This document shows, piece by piece, positions 14,463 to 36,248 of a DNA stretch of 64,000 nucleotides. The notes beneath the pieces are model-generated. The model saw only the letters and a program-made list of their open reading frames with translations, was not told the DNA's origin and searched no databases. The DNA lies in the IMG/VR virus record IMGVR_UViG_3300005077_000565, positions 96,001-160,000 of that record; one strand, 5' to 3'. This DNA comes from a virus. Made by a program: the position numbers and the translations under genes. How positions within the stretch are numbered: position 1 is the first letter of the stretch; each line of letters starts with the position of its first letter.

Positions 14463-15826
14463 CACCAAGTATCCCAGAACTCATTGAATTCCGGACATGC
14501 TTTGAGAATACTAGTGTTTCTCATGGAATCCAGTGATGTTATGTACATTTTAGCACGTGCACGCAATTCTGAAACATTATCAGGTTCTGGTGATTCCATT
14601 ATCTTACGTAACAAATCCCACTGATCCGGCCATTTAGTTGCAGTATTAGTCTTGCCACTACTGGTATATCTGCGTTTGCGTTCTGGTTCCAGTGTTACAA
14701 TAAAGCTATCTAACTCGTGCATTAGTCGACGTCGATATTCCAGTGGTAATACAGTGATCTGATAAAAATTAGGAAACTGCAAGAAGTTGGTAATTGTTAC
14801 ATTACCATTAAACTGATGAGTTTCGCACCATTCGATGAGTTGTCGTAGTCCCGCAACAGTGTACATACTTAGCGTTACGTTTAACCCCATGTCAATACCG
14901 TTGTTTCCTGAATTCACTGCCTGCATAATTCTAGTAACATTTCGATCAATAACATCCCACTTGGTGCCGGCTCTGGCCCACTCAGCACGAGCTCCAACTG
15001 CATCTAGACTACCACGTAGTATAATTTTATCGAATTTGTTCCAATATTCAGTGATCACATCCTTGCCAAATTGATTTAGCTTTAATAAGTTGCTAGTATA
15101 AGTAAGTCTACAATCAGTTCTATTGGCGGCCAGCAATATATCCAATATGTCGTAGTGTGTCTGATTGATCAATGGCTCACCACCGGCGAAATATATTTCT
15201 TTAGTGATATCGACATTTTTCTTTAAATGTGTGATAATTTCGTTTTTTCCGAAATCACCAATATCGATTACTGCAGATATATTACCCCTAGTATCTGGAT
15301 ACGGGGGTTTGAAGTAATTAATTTTGTTTTCTTTATGTGCTTCTATAGTTTCTTGACAAAGCAAACTACTATAACCAGGTGAACACATAATACACTTCAT
15401 ATTACATAGGTTAGTGTCTCGTATATCCCAGTAGGAAATTTCATCAGTGTCTAGGGTACCGTCTGCATGATAATCAATTTCGTGCACAGTTTCTGAATGT
15501 TCAAAATTCGCCTGAATTCGATGACTGCCACCATGGGAATTTTCTAGATCCCAGCAGGACTTACAAATTGGATTTTGAACTCCATTAATTAAATCTTTTC
15601 TAAGTTGTTGCCAGACGTTGTGGTTTCTAATAGATGTAAGGTTGTTCTTGGATATGTTTATTTCATCCTGAACTTGTCTAGTAGTCAGTTCCTGACTCAT
15701 TGATTTTACATGTATTGCTGAACTAGTAAAGCAACAGGGTAGTACATGCCCGTCGGGTACTATATGCGCACCTCGCCAGGCCCGGACGCAGATTTTATTA
15801 TTTTTCGGTAATTCTGAATATTTCAT
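14462..15826 (-). CDS. Radical SAM protein, tandem paralogue of 13116-14462
   Basis: Shared NNKICVRAW, CNMKCIMC, FAGGEP, RAEWAR, ACPEF.EFW..W. Confidence 0.88.
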   Translation of the reverse strand: MKYSELPKNNKICVRAWRGAHIVPDGHVLPCCFTSSAIHVKSMSQELTTRQVQDEINISKNNLTSIRNHNVWQQLRKDLINGVQNPICKSCWDLENSHGGSHRIQANFEHSETVHEIDYHADGTLDTDEISYWDIRDTNLCNMKCIMCSPGYSSLLCQETIEAHKENKINYFKPPYPDTRGNISAVIDIGDFGKNEIITHLKKNVDITKEIYFAGGEPLINQTHYDILDILLAANRTDCRLTYTSNLLKLNQFGKDVITEYWNKFDKIILRGSLDAVGARAEWARAGTKWDVIDRNVTRIMQAVNSGNNGIDMGLNVTLSMYTVAGLRQLIEWCETHQFNGNVTITNFLQFPNFYQITVLPLEYRRRLMHELDSFIVTLEPERKRRYTSSGKTNTATKWPDQWDLLRKIMESPEPDNVSELRARAKMYITSLDSMRNTSILKACPEFNEFWDTW

Positions 15827-27883: not shown

Positions 27884-28723
27884 TTAAACGATTCCCAGTG
27901 CACGCAACGATGCAGGACCAACAATACCGTCAGGGACTAATCCTTGGCTGCGCTGCCAGGCCATGACTGCTTTTTCTGTACCAGGACCAAAATTACCATC
28001 AGCAGCCAAGCCTAGTGCCTGTTGCACTGCTACTACCGTTGGACCATTGCTTCCACGCTTGACAGTTTCATGTGAAACCTCTGCTGGTTGCCAATCACCA
28101 CCTAAAATGTGCAGAGCATGTTCGTAATGCTTCTTACGATCTTCCAGCCCAATGGTCCCGCCGTTGATTCTTTTGGTCATACCGAGAATATCGCCGGCAT
28201 CGGCCCACTTATTCAGTTTATTGACATCCCAGAACCAGCATGCGCTCTCGAGTGCACCTTTTTTAGTGCCCAGATACTTTATAGCATCATCAATGCTGAT
28301 ACTTAAACTTTCGGCAAATTTTGAATAATTATCATGACCAGTGAGCTGTATTACACCACGTCCACGATACTTCCATCCATCACCACTGGCAGTGTCGCCG
28401 TTGCCCATGCGATTTGCGTATACAATATTGGCAATTCTTTCTGGTTGGCGATGGTATTGCTGTGCATCACGTCCAGCCTTGACAAAGTATTTGGGGAATA
28501 CTGCGTTCAGTGAAGTTGCACTGTAATTTAAGTTCTCTTCGAGAACTCTGAAATTTCCACTTTCATGAGCACACTGCGCGATAAACCCAGCGACACGTGG
28601 AACGGTGTTGATATCATAGTGTGGGAAAATTTCATACATGGCCTCAAACCATTGATCAGCATCATTATTGCCATGAAGAATTTCTCTAACTTGCTCCACA
28701 GTAAAATCAAACTCAAAACTCAT
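27884..28723 (-). CDS. Endolysin: GH19 domain + peptidoglycan-binding domain
   Basis: FIAQCAHESG, ENLNYS, YRGRG.IQLTG..NY, TKRINGG; C-terminal DG.FG..T..AV..WQ...GL..DGIVG. Confidence 0.93.
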   Translation of the reverse strand: MSFEFDFTVEQVREILHGNNDADQWFEAMYEIFPHYDINTVPRVAGFIAQCAHESGNFRVLEENLNYSATSLNAVFPKYFVKAGRDAQQYHRQPERIANIVYANRMGNGDTASGDGWKYRGRGVIQLTGHDNYSKFAESLSISIDDAIKYLGTKKGALESACWFWDVNKLNKWADAGDILGMTKRINGGTIGLEDRKKHYEHALHILGGDWQPAEVSHETVKRGSNGPTVVAVQQALGLAADGNFGPGTEKAVMAWQRSQGLVPDGIVGPASLRALGIV

Positions 28724-28769
28724 GTTATCTCCTTGCGTACATTTTGTACGTATATATTTATTTTCCATC

Positions 28770-28796
28770 AAAGAAAAGCCAGATTAATCTGGCTTT
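28770..28796 (-). terminator. Rho-independent terminator
   Basis: AAAGCCAGATTAATCTGGCTTT palindrome plus T tract. Confidence 0.7.
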
Positions 28797-28812: not shown

Positions 28813-30387
28813 TTATTTTTCGTTAATTTTACTCTTGATGCTAGTATAAAAGTCATTGGCCTGTTGCTCTAGTTGCTCAGTGGTCGATTCACTTTTGGCA
28901 ACTTTGTCGGCAATTTTGTGTGCCTTTTTAATGGTGGACTTTTTCAACGGTGGACGATCTCCAGTGGTTTTCATCGCCTGTGACATACCCACAGCGTAGG
29001 GGTTTTTTGCACGCTCTTCAATTTGGGATTCTTTGACACCGGGTCGACGACCAGTTACTGGGACACCGGATTTTTTCTGAAGATCTCTGATAAGTTCCTC
29101 ATCATCGGGTGCAATCATATTGGCAACACGACGTGCTCCGGATTTGATTCGATCAACAACACCAGGACGGTCACCGGCTCTGCGCATACTGGGATTTAGG
29201 TCCAGCGCAGTCTGTGTGTGGCCTCCTTCAGACATGGCATCAGCAGCCGCGGGCACTGTGGTGTGGTGGTGATGTGGATTCAGTGCCATATATTCAAGAT
29301 AATGTTTGACCGCACTTAAATCTTCACTGGCACGTGTAATTTTTGCTTGAATCCAGGGCTCTAGATTATCAGTGTCCTGAATCATACCATGTAAACCAAT
29401 GGCATACTTGGCAGTTTTATATAATTGGCTCTTGGCCATCCAGCCGTCTTCATCAGTGTCGTCTAGCACACCTTCGGAAATATTTTTTTTGTTTGACATA
29501 GTTGTTTCACCTATTTTGTTTTGTTGTTCTGGGACCCAGTTACGACGATCAGCGTCATGATCATAATTGTCAGCGTCTTCCTGATCACTGTCTGCATAAT
29601 CATTGTAACTTACATCGCTGCTATGAAATGCCCGTTTACCATGGTTATATAAGTTTACTATTACAAATAATTTATCTTTTCCAAATTCTGCAATTTCACC
29701 AGTGGCACCACTGAAACGGACACCGCGCCCGGTGATTACTACAGGATCTCCGATGTTCAATGTCTCGGCATTTTCGTGCATCATGTCAACGTCGGGTTCA
29801 CCAAAAACACTGACATAGTCGGACATGTCAAGAGTATCACCGTCAACTGCTGCCTGGATCATACGATCTACCACCACATGTAGATCAACATCAGTCTTGG
29901 CGTCTTCGCGTGCATATTCCAGAGCACGCAACAAGAACGGAACATCCATTTTTACAATATCCTGGACATTCTTCTCTACTGCTTCGGCGGACATTTGTGG
30001 GCGATTGTAGGATTCTAGATCTTGTTCCACTTGTCGAACCCAGTTACTCACATCGCTGGTGCCAATTTCATCGACGTCGCCGACCCAGTCAGCAACGTTG
30101 TCCACTGCTTGCATAACAACCTCGGGCCCGTATTTGGCTAATAGATCTGTACGTTGCATTAGGATACGACGAATAATAGATTGTGCCACTGGACCATCGT
30201 CTTCGCCGGCATTGTCTAGATAACCTTCTTTTATTAGGCCCTGTCTGATGTATTCCTGACGCTGATGCTCAAGTTCTTGTAGTTTGGCATCCCAGTGACG
30301 GGCACGCTCATCCATGTCATAACCAGATTTTTTTAATTGCTTGCTTAGTTTGTCTGCAAATTTGTTTTTTATTTGTTTGTTTGACAT
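28813..30387 (-). CDS. Modular polyprotein, probable head-internal protein
   Basis: Unrelated 40-80 aa segments separated by IKE/G, ISE/G, MSE/G, VKE/S type sites; one KOW-like module. Confidence 0.65.
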   Translation of the reverse strand: MSNKQIKNKFADKLSKQLKKSGYDMDERARHWDAKLQELEHQRQEYIRQGLIKEGYLDNAGEDDGPVAQSIIRRILMQRTDLLAKYGPEVVMQAVDNVADWVGDVDEIGTSDVSNWVRQVEQDLESYNRPQMSAEAVEKNVQDIVKMDVPFLLRALEYAREDAKTDVDLHVVVDRMIQAAVDGDTLDMSDYVSVFGEPDVDMMHENAETLNIGDPVVITGRGVRFSGATGEIAEFGKDKLFVIVNLYNHGKRAFHSSDVSYNDYADSDQEDADNYDHDADRRNWVPEQQNKIGETTMSNKKNISEGVLDDTDEDGWMAKSQLYKTAKYAIGLHGMIQDTDNLEPWIQAKITRASEDLSAVKHYLEYMALNPHHHHTTVPAAADAMSEGGHTQTALDLNPSMRRAGDRPGVVDRIKSGARRVANMIAPDDEELIRDLQKKSGVPVTGRRPGVKESQIEERAKNPYAVGMSQAMKTTGDRPPLKKSTIKKAHKIADKVAKSESTTEQLEQQANDFYTSIKSKINEK

Positions 30388-30388
30388 T

Positions 30389-32112
30389 TTATCTTCCGGT
30401 ATTGAATTTGTTTTTTAGAGCATTTATAGCAACTGTTTTATGCTCGGGCGATGCATCACTTGACGCGATGTCGCGGATCATTTTATTTAATCTTTGCTCG
30501 AATTCCCATTCAGGATCAGTGTCTGCTACGGGCATATCACGCACGGGTTCATCTTTAGGGCGTATATTGGATAGATCATGTCTCACAGCACCGGCTCCGA
30601 ATGTATGACCATGTGGGTTAATTGGATTGACAAATTTTAAAGATTCGCCAGTTACCTCTTCGACACTGACAATCTTAGCCCGGCTGTAGTGGCGTGCAAA
30701 ACGTTCGCGTGCTGTGCGTTCTGATTGTGCGTGAACACGGAATCGTTTACGTCCGCCTTCGGCTAGGTCAGCGGTAATGATGAAACTGCGATTCATAGTA
30801 CGAGCAGCGTGTAGCAGTCCGCTGGGATCACTTTCCTGTACGCCTTGCTCATCTAATGCATCGCCGACGTTCATAGGTTCATCGCCCACAGACGGTTTAT
30901 ACTCTGCTGGCTCTAGTCCACGGATAGCACGATAGGCAGCATCTAGAATTTCCATCTTTGTAGGATGATCCAAACCTGCGTACCAGGATTCTCGTTGCAG
31001 TTGATCAAACACTTCTCGGCGTTCTGCGTTCTCAAAATCTTCGTCATAGTCCCAGTAAGTGAACTGCTTTCTCTGGCCTTCGATGTCAAAAGTCAGCACC
31101 ATCTGATCTAAATCGTAGTCTGATTTAACAACACTGATGCCTTCCGACGATCGTCCTGGCCCACCATGTGCTTGGGAGTACGATACAACCAGTAGCGTGG
31201 CTCACCTTTACCAGCACTCTGTGTGCGTGTCCACAGCGTGTATCCACTCTGATAACTAGTGACATCATCGCTGCCCCAGCCTTCCGCCACACCTTGCTGA
31301 CCATATTCGTCTTCAAGACGATCCATCATGTGATCCTGTATTTTTTCAAAGTCGTCATCAGGGTGCAATCCATGGGTCCTAGAAATTTCATCATACATGT
31401 CTTGAAGTGTGCGTTGCACGCCGTGACCCAGTGAACCGCTGAGGCCAGCATAAATCATTTCGTAACCGTCGGCACCGGCGGCCGCAATTTGGGCCAGTGC
31501 CGCATCAATTTCTAACCCGACTTCTTCGTTTACATTCTTACTGGCATTAGGTACGCAGTTGGGGACTGTTTTCCCATTTTTTTTCTTGGTTCCTACTGGA
31601 TGGTATCCCCGCCAGCAAGGGTTGTCTTCGGGATCCTTCAATCCTTCAGTTGTTGAGGCGTTGTCTACTGGAACATTTTTATAGACACGCTTCGCAGGAT
31701 CATAGACAGTTTTCATAGGTCCTTGGCTAGCTAATTTTTTAACCTTGGCTATTTTTTCGTCCCATTCTGGACCGTATTCTGTTTCTTTCGCTTCTTCAAC
31801 ACTTAGTTGCTTTTTAATATAAGCGATACGTTTTGCAATAGCATCTTGCTTGGACCAAAAACTATAGTCGTCGCTGTATTGATACTGTGGATCAAACTCG
31901 GCCTGCAGTTGTTTTAGCTCTGCTGCAAGTGCTGCACGATCCACTGGAGCCGCTGGTTGTGGTGCGGCAGGTGCAGCGGCAGGTTTTCGTGTCTGCGGTC
32001 CGTGACGTACGGTGCCACCGTGTTGTTTAGCAAAAGCTGCCAACTGATCAGCCAGACTACTTTCTGTTAGATCCTGGTACTTTGTTGTTTGTTTGACTAT
32101 TTTTTTAGACAT
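30389..32112 (-). CDS. Modular polyprotein split by a frameshift near 31140 (ORFs 31108-32112 and 30389-31102)
   Basis: Downstream frame is open upstream of its ATG as EGISVVKSDYDLDQM; upstream ORF ends in a rare TAG. Confidence 0.6.
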
Positions 32113-32130
32113 GCTGATTCTCAGTAATTA

Positions 32131-32355
32131 TTAATAAATCCGTTTTATCATGATTGGATATCCGACAACACCCTGCTTTTTGCGATCAAATTTCTTAGCA
32201 AATTTACTATTAGGCCCATAACCATGTGGGTCTACTGCGCGGCGTGCATCGCCGGACTTGGTTCCCGGTGTCATGGGCATCACCACACTGGACATGAGGG
32301 CACTACCAGTACCACCGGCCGTGGCATCTTCGGAAATAATATCATGTATTTTCAT
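32131..32355 (-). CDS. Small protein with capsid-targeting-like N-terminus
   Basis: MKIHDIISE; TAAATA 5 nt upstream. Confidence 0.65.
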   Translation of the reverse strand: MKIHDIISEDATAGGTGSALMSSVVMPMTPGTKSGDARRAVDPHGYGPNSKFAKKFDRKKQGVVGYPIMIKRIY

Positions 32356-32376
32356 AATATTATTTATCGTATCAGG

Positions 32377-32619
32377 TTAGTAAAGTTTGGTGATGTTGCG
32401 TGCCAGTGAACGATCCTGTTTAACGGTACTGCGAACCATTTTTTTCTTTTTGGCTCTGACTTCTCTGGAATGATGCGGATCTAGTAGATCTAGATCAGTG
32501 TTGTCTGGTAACCCTGAATATGAAAGAGCATCGAATTTCGCGACACTGTTCATAGGGCCAATGGTGACATCCAACTCATCGATGTTTATTTTTTTGCAAG
32601 GCATGGCCCGATTCCCCAA
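32377..32619 (-). CDS. Hypothetical protein
   Basis: 80-aa ORF; start uncertain. Confidence 0.5.
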   Translation of the reverse strand: MGNRAMPCKKINIDELDVTIGPMNSVAKFDALSYSGLPDNTDLDLLDPHHSREVRAKKKKMVRSTVKQDRSLARNITKLY

Positions 32620-32622
32620 GTA

Positions 32623-33309
32623 TTAACGTTTACACGACTTTTTTCTAACTTCAGTGATATAGTTGATTAATTCAGTTTTTGCAAATTCAAAATCTTCACG
32701 ACGCATCAGTGGCAGACTAAACCAATGTTTGAACCAAGCGTCGGTGCCAGGTACTAGATTTTTCTTTCTAGCCTGCTGAGCTAGCTCGGTACCAGTGACA
32801 CTGATGTTTTCTGACATGTCCTGACAACCGAAGTCTTCGGCGACACGAGCACCAGCACGCCACTGGTAACAACTCCAATAGCGTGGTGTGGTACGATCGC
32901 GTGCATCATCACAGTTATGTCTAGCACGGAAATTTCGGCGACGATCTGGATCATCTCTTTTGATCTCCATGTTGGGGTCACCGAAACGTACAATAACAAC
33001 ATTCCCTGCATCGTTCTTAACATAGACTGCAAATTTTCTCGGACCCCCGGGAGTTCTGAATGGTTTGTTTAAAGTCACCTTTCTACCCTTGTATTCGGCT
33101 TCGGGTAGTAACTCTGTGGAAGGTATCAGATCATCATCTTCGAACGAATGTACTCGTCTTTCTACTCGATTAACCCAGTCCTTGCTGGGTTTCTGATCAC
33201 GATCACCGCGATAGTACTGCAATACTTTATCGGGATTGGATTTACTGACCAGTGCCCAACGTCCGTCAACACGGCGTAAATCTTCGTTGATAATGTCTGA
33301 TAATTTCAT
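32623..33309 (-). CDS. Modular protein with capsid-targeting-like N-terminus
   Basis: MKLSDIINE; modules bounded by LPE/A, VAE/D, MSE/N. Confidence 0.7.
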   Translation of the reverse strand: MKLSDIINEDLRRVDGRWALVSKSNPDKVLQYYRGDRDQKPSKDWVNRVERRVHSFEDDDLIPSTELLPEAEYKGRKVTLNKPFRTPGGPRKFAVYVKNDAGNVVIVRFGDPNMEIKRDDPDRRRNFRARHNCDDARDRTTPRYWSCYQWRAGARVAEDFGCQDMSENISVTGTELAQQARKKNLVPGTDAWFKHWFSLPLMRREDFEFAKTELINYITEVRKKSCKR

Positions 33310-33814: not shown

Positions 33815-33850
33815 AAAAAACCCCTGCAGGATATTTATCCGTACAGGGGT
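33815..33850 (-). terminator. Terminator with TAAATA late-promoter motif as its loop
   Basis: ACCCCTGTACGGA-TAAATA-TCCTGCAGGGGT-TTTTT. Confidence 0.75.
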
Positions 33851-34347: not shown

Positions 34348-34755
34348 TTATTGCCGCCGCACCAGTTGTGCTATGAATTTGTATTGTTCCCAGGCTTCAC
34401 GTAACTGTGGTATATCATCTAGACGATCGTCGGGTATTGTTAATTCCAGCCAGGGTGTCCAGCTCAGTGGCTGATTTCGGATGTTGCTGTGTCGATATGT
34501 GTGTATTTTGTTGTCGAACATTAGGTCGTCAATCACAGCAAAGACGTTGTCGCGATCCAGTCCAGACCAAGCCGGCGCTGATATCAGCGTCGGACTATTG
34601 TATTCAATCCAGCAATGATCTCGATCCCGACTGTTTTCAAAATCGTACCCAATTACATCTATTACTATGAGTACATCTTCAATGTCAACAGAACCCTGAA
34701 CTAGGTCTCTGATACATTGACTAAAAACAGTTCCTACAAGCATTAAATAATCCAA
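34348..34755 (-). CDS. Hypothetical protein, paralogue of 34792-35202
   Basis: VG..FS.C.RD...G.VDI.DVL.. and AWEQY shared. Confidence 0.75.
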   Translation of the reverse strand: MDYLMLVGTVFSQCIRDLVQGSVDIEDVLIVIDVIGYDFENSRDRDHCWIEYNSPTLISAPAWSGLDRDNVFAVIDDLMFDNKIHTYRHSNIRNQPLSWTPWLELTIPDDRLDDIPQLREAWEQYKFIAQLVRRQ

Positions 34756-34791: not shown

Positions 34792-35202
34792 TTATTGTAT
34801 CAATGACGCGATAGTCTGATATTGTTCCCAGGCTTCTTTGGCAGCTGGTATGTTATTCAAATCTTCCGGAGTTATTATTAAATCATACCAGTGGTATTTT
34901 AGCCTTGGTGGATTGATACCAAATTTTCTCGGCTGATGCAGCTTACCAGAATCCCAGAGTTCCTGCGCGATGTTGCGAATTTTTGCCTCATCATCGTCAG
35001 TAAAATCGCTCCATTCGTGTTGAACCCAGGGCGATCGGTGTCTGATATTGGTGCCACGATATCCATGCCAGATTGCACCCCATTGTTCATCATCACGCGG
35101 ATCAAAATCTGTCCTTGCAATAATGACCAGTACATCATCAATATCTACCACCCCAGTGGCAATGTCTCGCAGACATCTACTAAAACTTAATCCTACTCTC
35201 AT
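34792..35202 (-). CDS. Hypothetical protein, paralogue of 34348-34755
   Basis: Same shared motifs. Confidence 0.8.
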   Translation of the reverse strand: MRVGLSFSRCLRDIATGVVDIDDVLVIIARTDFDPRDDEQWGAIWHGYRGTNIRHRSPWVQHEWSDFTDDDEAKIRNIAQELWDSGKLHQPRKFGINPPRLKYHWYDLIITPEDLNNIPAAKEAWEQYQTIASLIQ

Positions 35203-35204
35203 AA

Positions 35205-35495
35205 TCAAATAATCAAAAGACGCACCAGTGCTACACTATCAATACTAACCAACAGTGCGTAGTTGGCAATCATCCCTGTAGAACGTCGGGTCCAGGCAGC
35301 CCAGGCGAAAATAGCACACTGTGTGATAAACAATGGATACAGAATCAGGAAGGGCGGCTCGGGCACAGTCAACATCATAGTGACGCTACAGCCGATGCTG
35401 AGAAACCAAGCAACAATTTCCAAGACGCAACGTAGTGGATTACTACGCCAATCTTCACGAATCCAATCGACGATTCCAGAAATAAATTTACGCAT
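35205..35495 (-). CDS. Small 3-TM membrane protein
   Basis: LE..W, P....LYP, RR pattern as in 26201-26485. Confidence 0.7.
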   Translation of the reverse strand: MRKFISGIVDWIREDWRSNPLRCVLEIVAWFLSIGCSVTMMLTVPEPPFLILYPLFITQCAIFAWAAWTRRSTGMIANYALLVSIDSVALVRLLII

Positions 35496-35558: not shown

Positions 35559-36248
35559 ATGAATATTTACTATGTTTATCAACTAGTTGATCCTCGCAAT
35601 AATAAACCTTTTTATATCGGAGAAGGAAAGGGTAATAGAGCCTGGAGTCATTTATCTTTTAACAGTGGTTGTAATAATCCGCACAAAGATAGAATAATAC
35701 GTAAAATACAGTCTCAGGGGTTAGAAGTTGAAGTTCAAATTATTAAAGAAAATTTGTCAAAAGAAGAGTCACGAGAGTACGAAAAACAAATAATCAATTC
35801 TATAGGGCTAGAAAATTTATCTAACATTTGTCAGGATGCCAATCCGCCTATACTATCAGGAACTAGTAATGGATTTTATGGTAAAACTCACACAAACAAA
35901 ACAAAACATATATTAGGATTAGTTAATAAGGGCAGAGATATAAAAACTAAAGAAGGAAAAGAGGCCATTAGCCGATCCTTAAAGAAACGCTGGCAAGATC
36001 CTGTACTAAGAGAAAGACAACTCGATGCTCTTAGGGCCAGAAAAGGTGAAAAAAGAAGTCAGCAAGCAAAAGAATCATATAAAAAATCAGCCGCTCAACG
36101 AGATGCTAACATGACTTCCGAAGATAGATCGTTGCGATCTAAAAAAGGTGCTGATACTAAAAAATTAAAGTATGCCGGGATGAAACGGCAAGCGTATGTC
36201 GATCAAGACGGCAATAAGAGATTTAGATACGTCCCTCTAGTTGATTAA
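35559..36248 (+). mobile_element. Free-standing GIY-YIG homing endonuclease
   Basis: YVYQLVDP...FYIG.G...R, NUMOD3-like NGFYGKTH; AT-rich, opposite strand, TAAATA upstream. Confidence 0.85.

Follow-up and report, generated by a model that had tools for sequence, protein, structure and literature searches.

Mutagenesis of the leader of the T4 internal protein IPIII showed that residues 4 and 7 govern targeting and residues 8 and 10 govern processing (PMC9026906). Inner-body and ejection proteins of the phages phiKZ, 201phi2-1 and SPN3US are cut after Glu by a gp21-like protease (PMC9026906, PMC5694885, PMC10052503), and it has been predicted that the multi-domain polyvalent proteins of phages and conjugative elements accompany the DNA (Iyer et al. 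2017, PMC5512222). Here we describe six tightly packed minus-strand genes, p1–p6, at 28813–33309 of a 64,000-nt stretch of viral DNA (positions 96,001 to 160,000 of the IMG/VR record IMGVR_UViG_3300005077_000565; this whole stretch is called the window). Judged from the sequence, this cluster rather likely encodes the internal proteins (head cargo) of a jumbo phage that belongs to the Rak2/PA5oct/T4 lineage and has not been cultured; the precursors would be targeted to the capsid and cut by the head protease. The genes are listed below.

32623–33309, (−) strand: p6, 228 aa
32377–32619, (−) strand: p5, 80 aa, small basic protein
32131–32355, (−) strand: p4, 74 aa, basic; conserved member of the cluster
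31108–32112, (−) strand: p3, 334 aa, multi-module
30389–31102, (−) strand: p2, 237 aa
28813–30387, (−) strand: p1, 524 aa, multi-module, without canonical leader

An earlier reading of these letters (the original prediction) had proposed that the proteins are chains of small modules joined at linkers that resemble prohead-protease sites. We found the six open reading frames (ORFs) and all 12 of the motifs that it listed where it had placed them.

Independently folding modules in changing order

The cluster proteins are strings of independently folding modules, which recur in other orders, with other partners and as stand-alone genes. The modules measure about 25 to 250 aa, a wider range than the 40–80 aa first proposed, and were seen in other orders and with other partners in thousands of metagenomic proteins. 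The layout of p6 is given below, where the slash marks the proposed cut and pLDDT is the predicted local distance difference test of the AlphaFold model.

33283..33309, (−) strand: p6 leader, residues 1–9, MKLSDIINE/D; capsid-targeting-like sequence
33100..33282, (−) strand: p6 module A, residues 10–70, end LPE/A; pLDDT 87–89
32836..33099, (−) strand: p6 RFGD module, residues 71–158; net charge +10, pLDDT 92–95
32626..32835, (−) strand: p6 linker and module C, residues 159–228, border MSE/N at 167; pLDDT <50 at 156–171

Residues 1–62 of p6 correspond to a stand-alone protein of 64–67 aa in PA5oct and in Stenotrophomonas phage RAS14 (a jumbo phage). The cleanest case of a swap is the protein P0015, which equals p6 in its leader, module A and module C, and has a CW..VPNC unit exactly at the place of the RFGD unit, with module C immediately behind it. 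In P0020 the RFGD unit comes first and module A follows, the reverse of the order in p6, and a protein of L052 holds the CW and RFGD units together. Module C (residues 167–228) is found alone in proteins of 71–105 aa and also inside a 663-aa protein of L006, after a nucleotidase domain. For the RFGD unit we found 6715 homologues of 125–399 aa, among them fusions to ART-PolyVal, GNAT, kinase and nucleotidase domains. Pelagibacter phage HTVC008M encodes an RFGD protein of 133 aa. As a protein on its own, the unit occurs in podoviruses and in an archaeal spindle virus, and those proteins begin two residues past the proposed cut.

The predicted structures agree with this picture. The AlphaFold model of p6 has a predicted template modelling score (pTM) of 0.44, and its linkers at 58–66 and 156–171, which hold the proposed sites, have pLDDT <50. 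The model of p1 has a pTM of 0.29 and five confident islands, with linkers of pLDDT <50 at 191–204, 287–306, 373–409 and 443–463; 9 of its 14 sites fall in the 32% of residues with low confidence. The proteins are thus not single folding units. Nor did we find a homologue that is colinear over the full length, as the best single match covers 60% of p3 and 50% of p1. In p3 the matches start and end in pile-ups at 20, 116, 149–156, 188–196 and 271. Both results are what the original prediction of shuffled modules had anticipated. The modules of p1 and p3 that could be delimited are the following.

29539..29772, (−) strand: p1 KOW-like beta-barrel, residues 206–283, entry MHE/N; pLDDT 94–97
29227..29472, (−) strand: p1 helical module, residues 306–387, entry ISE/G; pLDDT <50 at 287–306
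32062..32112, (−) strand: p3 divergent 17-residue leader ending LTE/S, followed by a module that is internal elsewhere
31525..31644, (−) strand: p3 CW..VPNC module, residues 157–196, entry TTE/G, exit VNE/E

The three units singled out in the original prediction are real. The RFGD unit has the homologues mentioned above, and the CW..VPNC unit matches six PHROGs at differing positions. In Foldseek searches, p1 206–283 matched NusG/Spt5 KOW domains (rmsd 1.2–1.7 Å over 52–56 columns, probability 1.0, E 4e-3 to 2e-2) and superposed as a five-stranded KOW/SH3-like barrel on 2e70 (rmsd 1.2 Å, 52 columns) and 1m1g (rmsd 1.7 Å, 56 columns). It has no Pfam KOW match; therefore, the likeness is at the level of the fold only. 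The module that follows p3:17 is preceded elsewhere by GVAE/G in 4 cases, and in P0155 it stands at the N-terminus, preceded by a leader of 10 residues.

With the whole p6 model as query, Foldseek gave no match in the PDB at E ≤ 0.001, VIA-align gave only Z <5 (for the helical tail), and a search of BFVD returned uncharacterised phage proteins only. Pfam and PHROGs assigned no function to any of the six proteins, with zero Pfam matches above cut-off. The p3 tail, 57 residues after its linker, has almost no homologue, and p2 had no match in the phage records or among the cluster proteins. Upstream of the p2 ATG the frame stays open for another ∼33 codons, in which it reads SSE/G over a second CGGAAGGC (window 31100–31300). 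p3 and p2 may once have formed a single frame. This second CGGAAGGC, 140 nt below the p3 linker, was considered as a meaningful repeat and rejected, being within chance (3 on the strand vs 2.6 expected).

A similar string was noticed in a cultured T4-like cyanophage. In Synechococcus phage S-RIM8 (L004:1883–3454), a 523-aa protein encoded between the small terminase gene and the next structural genes strings together the same mini-modules; it comprises DUF6321, a unit like DUF5872, a CW unit and the p1 unit AKNPY.

Protease-like junctions and a linker fixed at the DNA level

The proposed cut sites share the form hydrophobic-x-Glu (h-x-E). Their number is no evidence in itself: the 1477 aa of the six proteins contain 29 [ILVMF]xE, close to what control proteins show, and [LIVM]xE is at 1.03 of expectation in leader-bearing proteins. 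What exceeds chance is their position. A comparison of match borders with sites on p1 gave a weak result (4 of 10 borders within 3 residues of a site vs ∼2 expected) and was replaced by a test per junction, in which we took the homologues whose match starts at a border, kept distinct contexts and asked for [ILVMF]xE within two residues. In this test the module was preceded by [ILVMF]xE in 50–92% of the distinct homologous junctions vs a background of 9–12%, with p-values of 1e-5 to 2e-40, computed as if related junctions were independent, which is only partly true. The sequence upstream of the motif was unrelated from case to case. The junctions are listed below.

p1:54: [ILVMF]xE in 21/42 junctions, background 12%
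p1:205 (MHE/N): 23/25 junctions, background 11%
p1:305 (ISE/G): 21/26 junctions, h-x-E/G, 5 of these directly behind N-terminal leaders, background 11%
p1:453 (VKE/S): 0/5 junctions, background 15%
p3:17 (LTE/S): 6/8 junctions, background 9%
p3:107: 9/17 junctions, background 10%
p3:156 (TTE/G): 54/64 junctions, 20 of these directly behind an N-terminal leader, background 12%
p3:196 (VNE/E): 3/6 junctions, weak, background 10%
p6:70 (LPE/A): 34/61 junctions, h-x-E/[AS]EY before the RFGD unit, background 9%

Among the sites first proposed, p6:9, p6:70, p1:54, p1:305, p3:17 and p3:107 lie at module borders where h-x-E is conserved in homologues, p3:196 does so weakly, and p1:453 is not supported. 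Three further borders, p3:156 (TTE/G), p1:205 (MHE/N) and p6:167 (MSE/N), were not on the original list. The site p6:158 is supported indirectly. Of 34 proteins that extend past the RFGD unit, 18 have V-x-E behind it, many of these 18 being close relatives; of 35 that finish with the unit, none has it.

One junction differs from the others in being fixed as DNA.

31279..31296, (−) strand: linker CAAGGTGTGGCGGAAGGC, which codes for QGVAEG, p3 residues 273–278; one exact copy in the window

The coding sequence of this p3 junction is GGTGTGGCGGAAGGC. In relatives the QGVAE/G linker recurs at module borders; the site in the window itself, p3:277, had no homologue for comparison. Among GVAEG peptides in relatives that were found through their polymerase and not through the motif, 10 of 12 are encoded by the identical 15-mer (p = 7e-28, from a codon-usage probability of 0.0013 each; the GCG in it is an 8% Ala codon). 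Extended by the Gln codon to an 18-mer, the sequence is matched exactly at 158 sites or more, spread over at least 123 IMG/VR stretches. All sites examined are in frame, with 1–3 per protein at spacings of 50–267 residues. Its flanks are unrelated in 140 contexts and carry 0–0.3 bits of information, and the sequences that follow it fall into 67 families out of 82. Since a protease cannot select silent positions, this joint also acts at the DNA or RNA level, and on the simplest reading the QGVAEG linker is probably also a recombination joint.

These results raise the question of whether the proteins are cut at all. They could be ordinary multi-domain proteins with flexible linkers that are never cleaved. 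The junction motif would then owe its conservation to the linker DNA, a recombination joint for domain shuffling, and would resemble a protease site by accident. The silent-site conservation of QGVAEG, which is beyond protease selection, and the unrelated flanks of the linker fit this explanation, as does the rarity of V at P3 in the leaders (4 of 68). However, most junctions are not fixed as DNA and yet keep h-x-E with varied codons and residues; the same modules stand directly behind N-terminal leaders of a cleavable type; stand-alone RFGD proteins begin where the cut would fall; and V-x-E behind the RFGD unit marks proteins that continue and not those that end. We regard uncut proteins as rather unlikely.

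More tentatively, and with somewhat less than even confidence, we suggest that hundreds of uncultured giant T4-related phages carry their cargo as in-frame cassettes. The joint would then be a protease site in the peptide and a crossover point between genes and phages in the DNA (the 18-mer in the case of QGVAEG), and any module inserted at such a joint would be packaged, released and injected.

Leaders, head protease and genomic setting

The p4 and p6 proteins begin with the leaders MKIHDIISE/D and MKLSDIINE, and p5 has a probable start at ATG 32604 that gives a 10-residue leader ending in IDE; homologues of p5 in L006 and L021 have I-x-E at residues 12–15. These leaders of 9–10 residues fit the T4 capsid targeting sequence at P7/P4 (targeting) and P3/P1 (processing). 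An N-terminal motif scan of the 945 ORFs of the record found this leader on p4 and p6 only, plus two unrelated ORFs. In relatives anchored on the polymerase, it was present on 81 of 649 plus-strand ORFs upstream of the polymerase vs 2 of 560 downstream and 0 of 155 on the other strand. When the leaders were aligned on Glu, P3 was L or I in 58 of 68 and V in 4, and P7 and P4 were hydrophobic.

Leaders were also seen in front of the same modules elsewhere. Among 120 RFGD homologues, 30 start with T4-like leaders, for example MKSYKEFVIE and MKKFIEFIAE, which are even nearer to the T4 leader sequence, and the p1 homologue in L006 opens with a canonical leader. In a 50-kb stretch of PA5oct, three ORFs fit the leader pattern: gp380 and gp381, which are annotated as virion proteins by electrospray ionization tandem mass spectrometry (ESI-MS/MS), an annotation carried by 7 of the ∼105 genes of that stretch, and a third of 64 residues. 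Internal relics of whole leaders were considered as evidence and set aside, being too few (4 in cluster proteins vs 0 in controls; one clear case, P0091). As a side observation, gp381 and gp380 (L002:4202–5624) are paralogous to each other, share an HExxH motif (HELQHALD, HELRHALD), match metallopeptidase families of Pfam faintly, and may be packaged metalloproteases. The p4 family reads (D/S/T)ATAG(G/A/S)T after its leader (window 32329–32300), nearly the same letters as those that come after the putative maturation site of the capsid protein (LSE/SATAGAT; capsid gene outside the window, G000:C1 ∼15120–15130).

Elsewhere in the record, a T4-type head module encodes a portal, an acidic core protein, a gp21-family protease, a coiled-coil scaffold and a major capsid protein. 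The protease matches Peptidase_S77 (PF03420) at 85.5 bits (cut-off 27) and phrog_207 at 7e-59, and can be aligned with 5JBL, the structure of T4 gp21 (E 3e-13). It shows His and Ser at positions that are Ala in the chain that was crystallised; we take these two residues to be the catalytic pair. The two largest related contigs encode the protease, too. The link to a T4-type prohead protease is stronger than the original prediction could tell, with the protease in the genome, leaders on p4 and p6, and the same modules directly behind leaders in other phages.

We also observed a distribution of [LI]xE that would be expected if these proteins encounter a protease specific for [LI]xE. In the capsid protein the motif occurs twice, each time within residues 1–40 (the propeptide), and is absent from the remaining 344 residues. 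The scaffold has 6.85 per 100 residues, and the interiors of leader-bearing proteins have 0.50 per 100 (observed/expected 0.79) vs 1.05 (1.17) in controls.

This pattern bears on the possibility that the cluster proteins are scaffold-like core fillers that go into the prohead, are broken down by the protease and are expelled ahead of DNA packaging, and not delivered cargo. The T4 core proteins gp22, gp67 and gp68 are cut at many sites. The scaffold of the present phage is itself very motif-rich, and some fragments of the cluster proteins are strongly acidic (net charges −28 and −14 in p1 and p3, −13 in p2). Leader-bearing interiors, on the other hand, avoid the motif instead of accumulating it. 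Moreover, the modules are conserved folded domains with pLDDT >90, which exist as separate genes in other viruses and have enzymes among their relatives. Core fillers are, in our judgement, very unlikely.

The neighbouring genes could suggest still another role. A staphylococcal-type nuclease gene lies upstream of the cluster, and the endolysin and a family B DNA polymerase lie downstream. The six proteins could accordingly be cytoplasmic and stay outside the virion, the N-terminus being a translation-start or regulatory signal, and the junctions being cut, if at all, by some other Glu-specific protease. The adjoining of an RFGD protein to a nuclease gene in CRP-901 would fit this as well. The leader, however, varies by substitutions that are conservative at the protein level (K/R, I/L, D/E), it fits the T4 positions for targeting and processing, and leader-bearing PA5oct proteins are annotated as detected in virions. 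Cytoplasmic proteins appear highly improbable.

Several observations weigh against capsid-targeted, protease-cut cargo, in addition to the chance-level total of motifs and the partial dependence of the junctions described above. The cluster is surrounded by replication and lysis genes, not by head genes. p1 and p2 have no leader, and that of p3 is divergent only. Several junctions have V, M or T at P3, whereas the leaders and the capsid protein point to L or I. The site p1:453 shows no conservation, and IEE/R at 458 fits better. The podoviruses and archaeal spindle viruses in which the RFGD unit occurs alone are without a gp21-type protease, which indicates that this unit has a function of its own in which the capsid is not necessarily involved.

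As to timing, the original prediction had called these genes late. We looked for GATAAATA or the heptamer ATAAATA upstream of genes of the record and found the following.

32361–32368: GATAAATA or ATAAATA upstream of p4, ending 5 nt before the ATG
28755–28761: GATAAATA or ATAAATA upstream of the endolysin, 31 nt
33832–33838: GATAAATA or ATAAATA upstream of the nuclease operon, 75 nt
G000:C1:19819–19826: GATAAATA or ATAAATA upstream of the portal gene, 28 nt
G000:C1:14018–14025: GATAAATA or ATAAATA upstream of the gene after the terminator, 22 nt

The motif may be a T4-late-like promoter, and its placement, with GATAAATA 22–31 nt upstream of the portal gene, the post-terminator gene and the endolysin, gives late transcription weak support. 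It is not rare overall (27 on the strand vs 23 expected), and the T4 late promoter TATAAATA, tried as a signal of the cluster, showed no enrichment in the window. ATAAATA is enriched upstream of leader genes (13 of 69 vs 8 of 429); 7 of the 13 lie at the same 5-nt distance and are perhaps one orthologous family.

The source record has 168 kb in IMG/VR and a completeness rating of 47%. Its polymerase is 43–49% identical to those of Rak2, GAP32, PA5oct and Atu_ph07-type jumbo phages, and 58–70% identical to those of >599 uncultured contigs.

Some further features of the surroundings were noted. The endolysin ORF (window 27884–28771) probably starts at the internal ATG 28723 (MSFEFDF), as in its L006 homologue; the listed TTG adds 16 residues. 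Two adjacent paralogous genes at 34348–34755 and 34792–35208 encode proteins of 135 and 138 aa that are alike in their N- and C-terminal motifs and have a relative in L021. A lone plus-strand ORF amid the minus-strand genes, at 35559–36248 (+), resembles a GIY-YIG homing endonuclease by eye at its N-terminus.

Proposed route and comparison with known systems

On the preferred reading of head cargo, the leader would carry the precursors into the scaffolding core of the prohead, where the head protease would remove it and cut the internal junctions. The small, often basic proteins so released would stay with the DNA and leave with it at infection, and the module set would come to differ between phages through the exchange of whole cassettes at the junctions. 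Several of the fragments (RFGD +10, p4 +7) are basic like the T4 internal proteins; others are strongly acidic. Of the payload system that was originally proposed, the mosaic, the junctions, the leaders and the protease are in place; cleavage, presence in the virion and ejection into the host are what we infer from them. An anti-defence role would be guesswork, with IPI* (PMC3012670) as the model.

Should cleavage and packaging be confirmed, T4-type internal proteins would prove to be a widespread, combinatorial cargo of aquatic giant phages and not a curiosity of T-even coliphages. Several abundant domains, namely DUF5824, DUF5872, DUF6321, DUF3008 and the RFGD and CW..VPNC units, could then be placed inside the capsid, with a role at the very start of infection that can be tested. 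The joint fixed in the DNA would offer a rare natural example of viral domain exchange akin to exon shuffling, as well as a ready design rule for putting foreign proteins into phage heads.

Our literature searches returned no published description of capsid-cargo polyproteins made of shuffled mini-modules, or of a DNA-fixed joint. RNA-virus polyproteins are similar in that cleavage of a single translation product at short conserved sites yields separate functional proteins; here, however, the modules come in no fixed order, the protease gene lies elsewhere, and cutting would occur inside the procapsid. Polyvalent proteins are approached by the one homologue in which the RFGD unit is fused to an ART-PolyVal domain. 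They carry several large enzymatic conflict domains and a peptidase of their own, whereas the window proteins, none of which has a Pfam match above cut-off, have neither and would rely on leader-type sites for the head protease.

The phiKZ-type inner body also has features in common with the present locus: a diverged gp21 homologue cuts many head proteins after Glu, with several sites in one precursor, and ejection of the cargo accompanies that of the DNA. It differs in having S, A or G at P3 (L, I or V here), in mostly removing propeptides, in its large paralogue families and in its phage lineage, since the polymerase groups the present phage with those of the Rak2, GAP32 and PA5oct type; shuffled mini-modules are not part of it.

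The logic of the locus is that of the T4 internal proteins IPI, IPII, IPIII and Alt (PMC9026906, PMC3012670), with which it shares a leader of ∼10 residues in which P7 and P4 are hydrophobic, P3 is L or I and P1 is Glu. It also shares a gp21-family protease, small basic products and a highly variable gene set with only the leader in common. The present locus differs in having several unrelated modules per leader (or no leader), internal copies of the putative cut site, a place next to the polymerase and one DNA-fixed linker. The polymorphic internal-protein loci of T-even phages reportedly exchange their cargo genes like cassettes with a common conserved leader region (Repoila et al. 1994). 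There, whole genes are swapped; here, it is in-frame modules within genes, at joints of 15–18 nt. It is this arrangement of shuffled mini-modules in polyproteins, together with the DNA-fixed joint, that is new relative to the logic of the T4 internal proteins.

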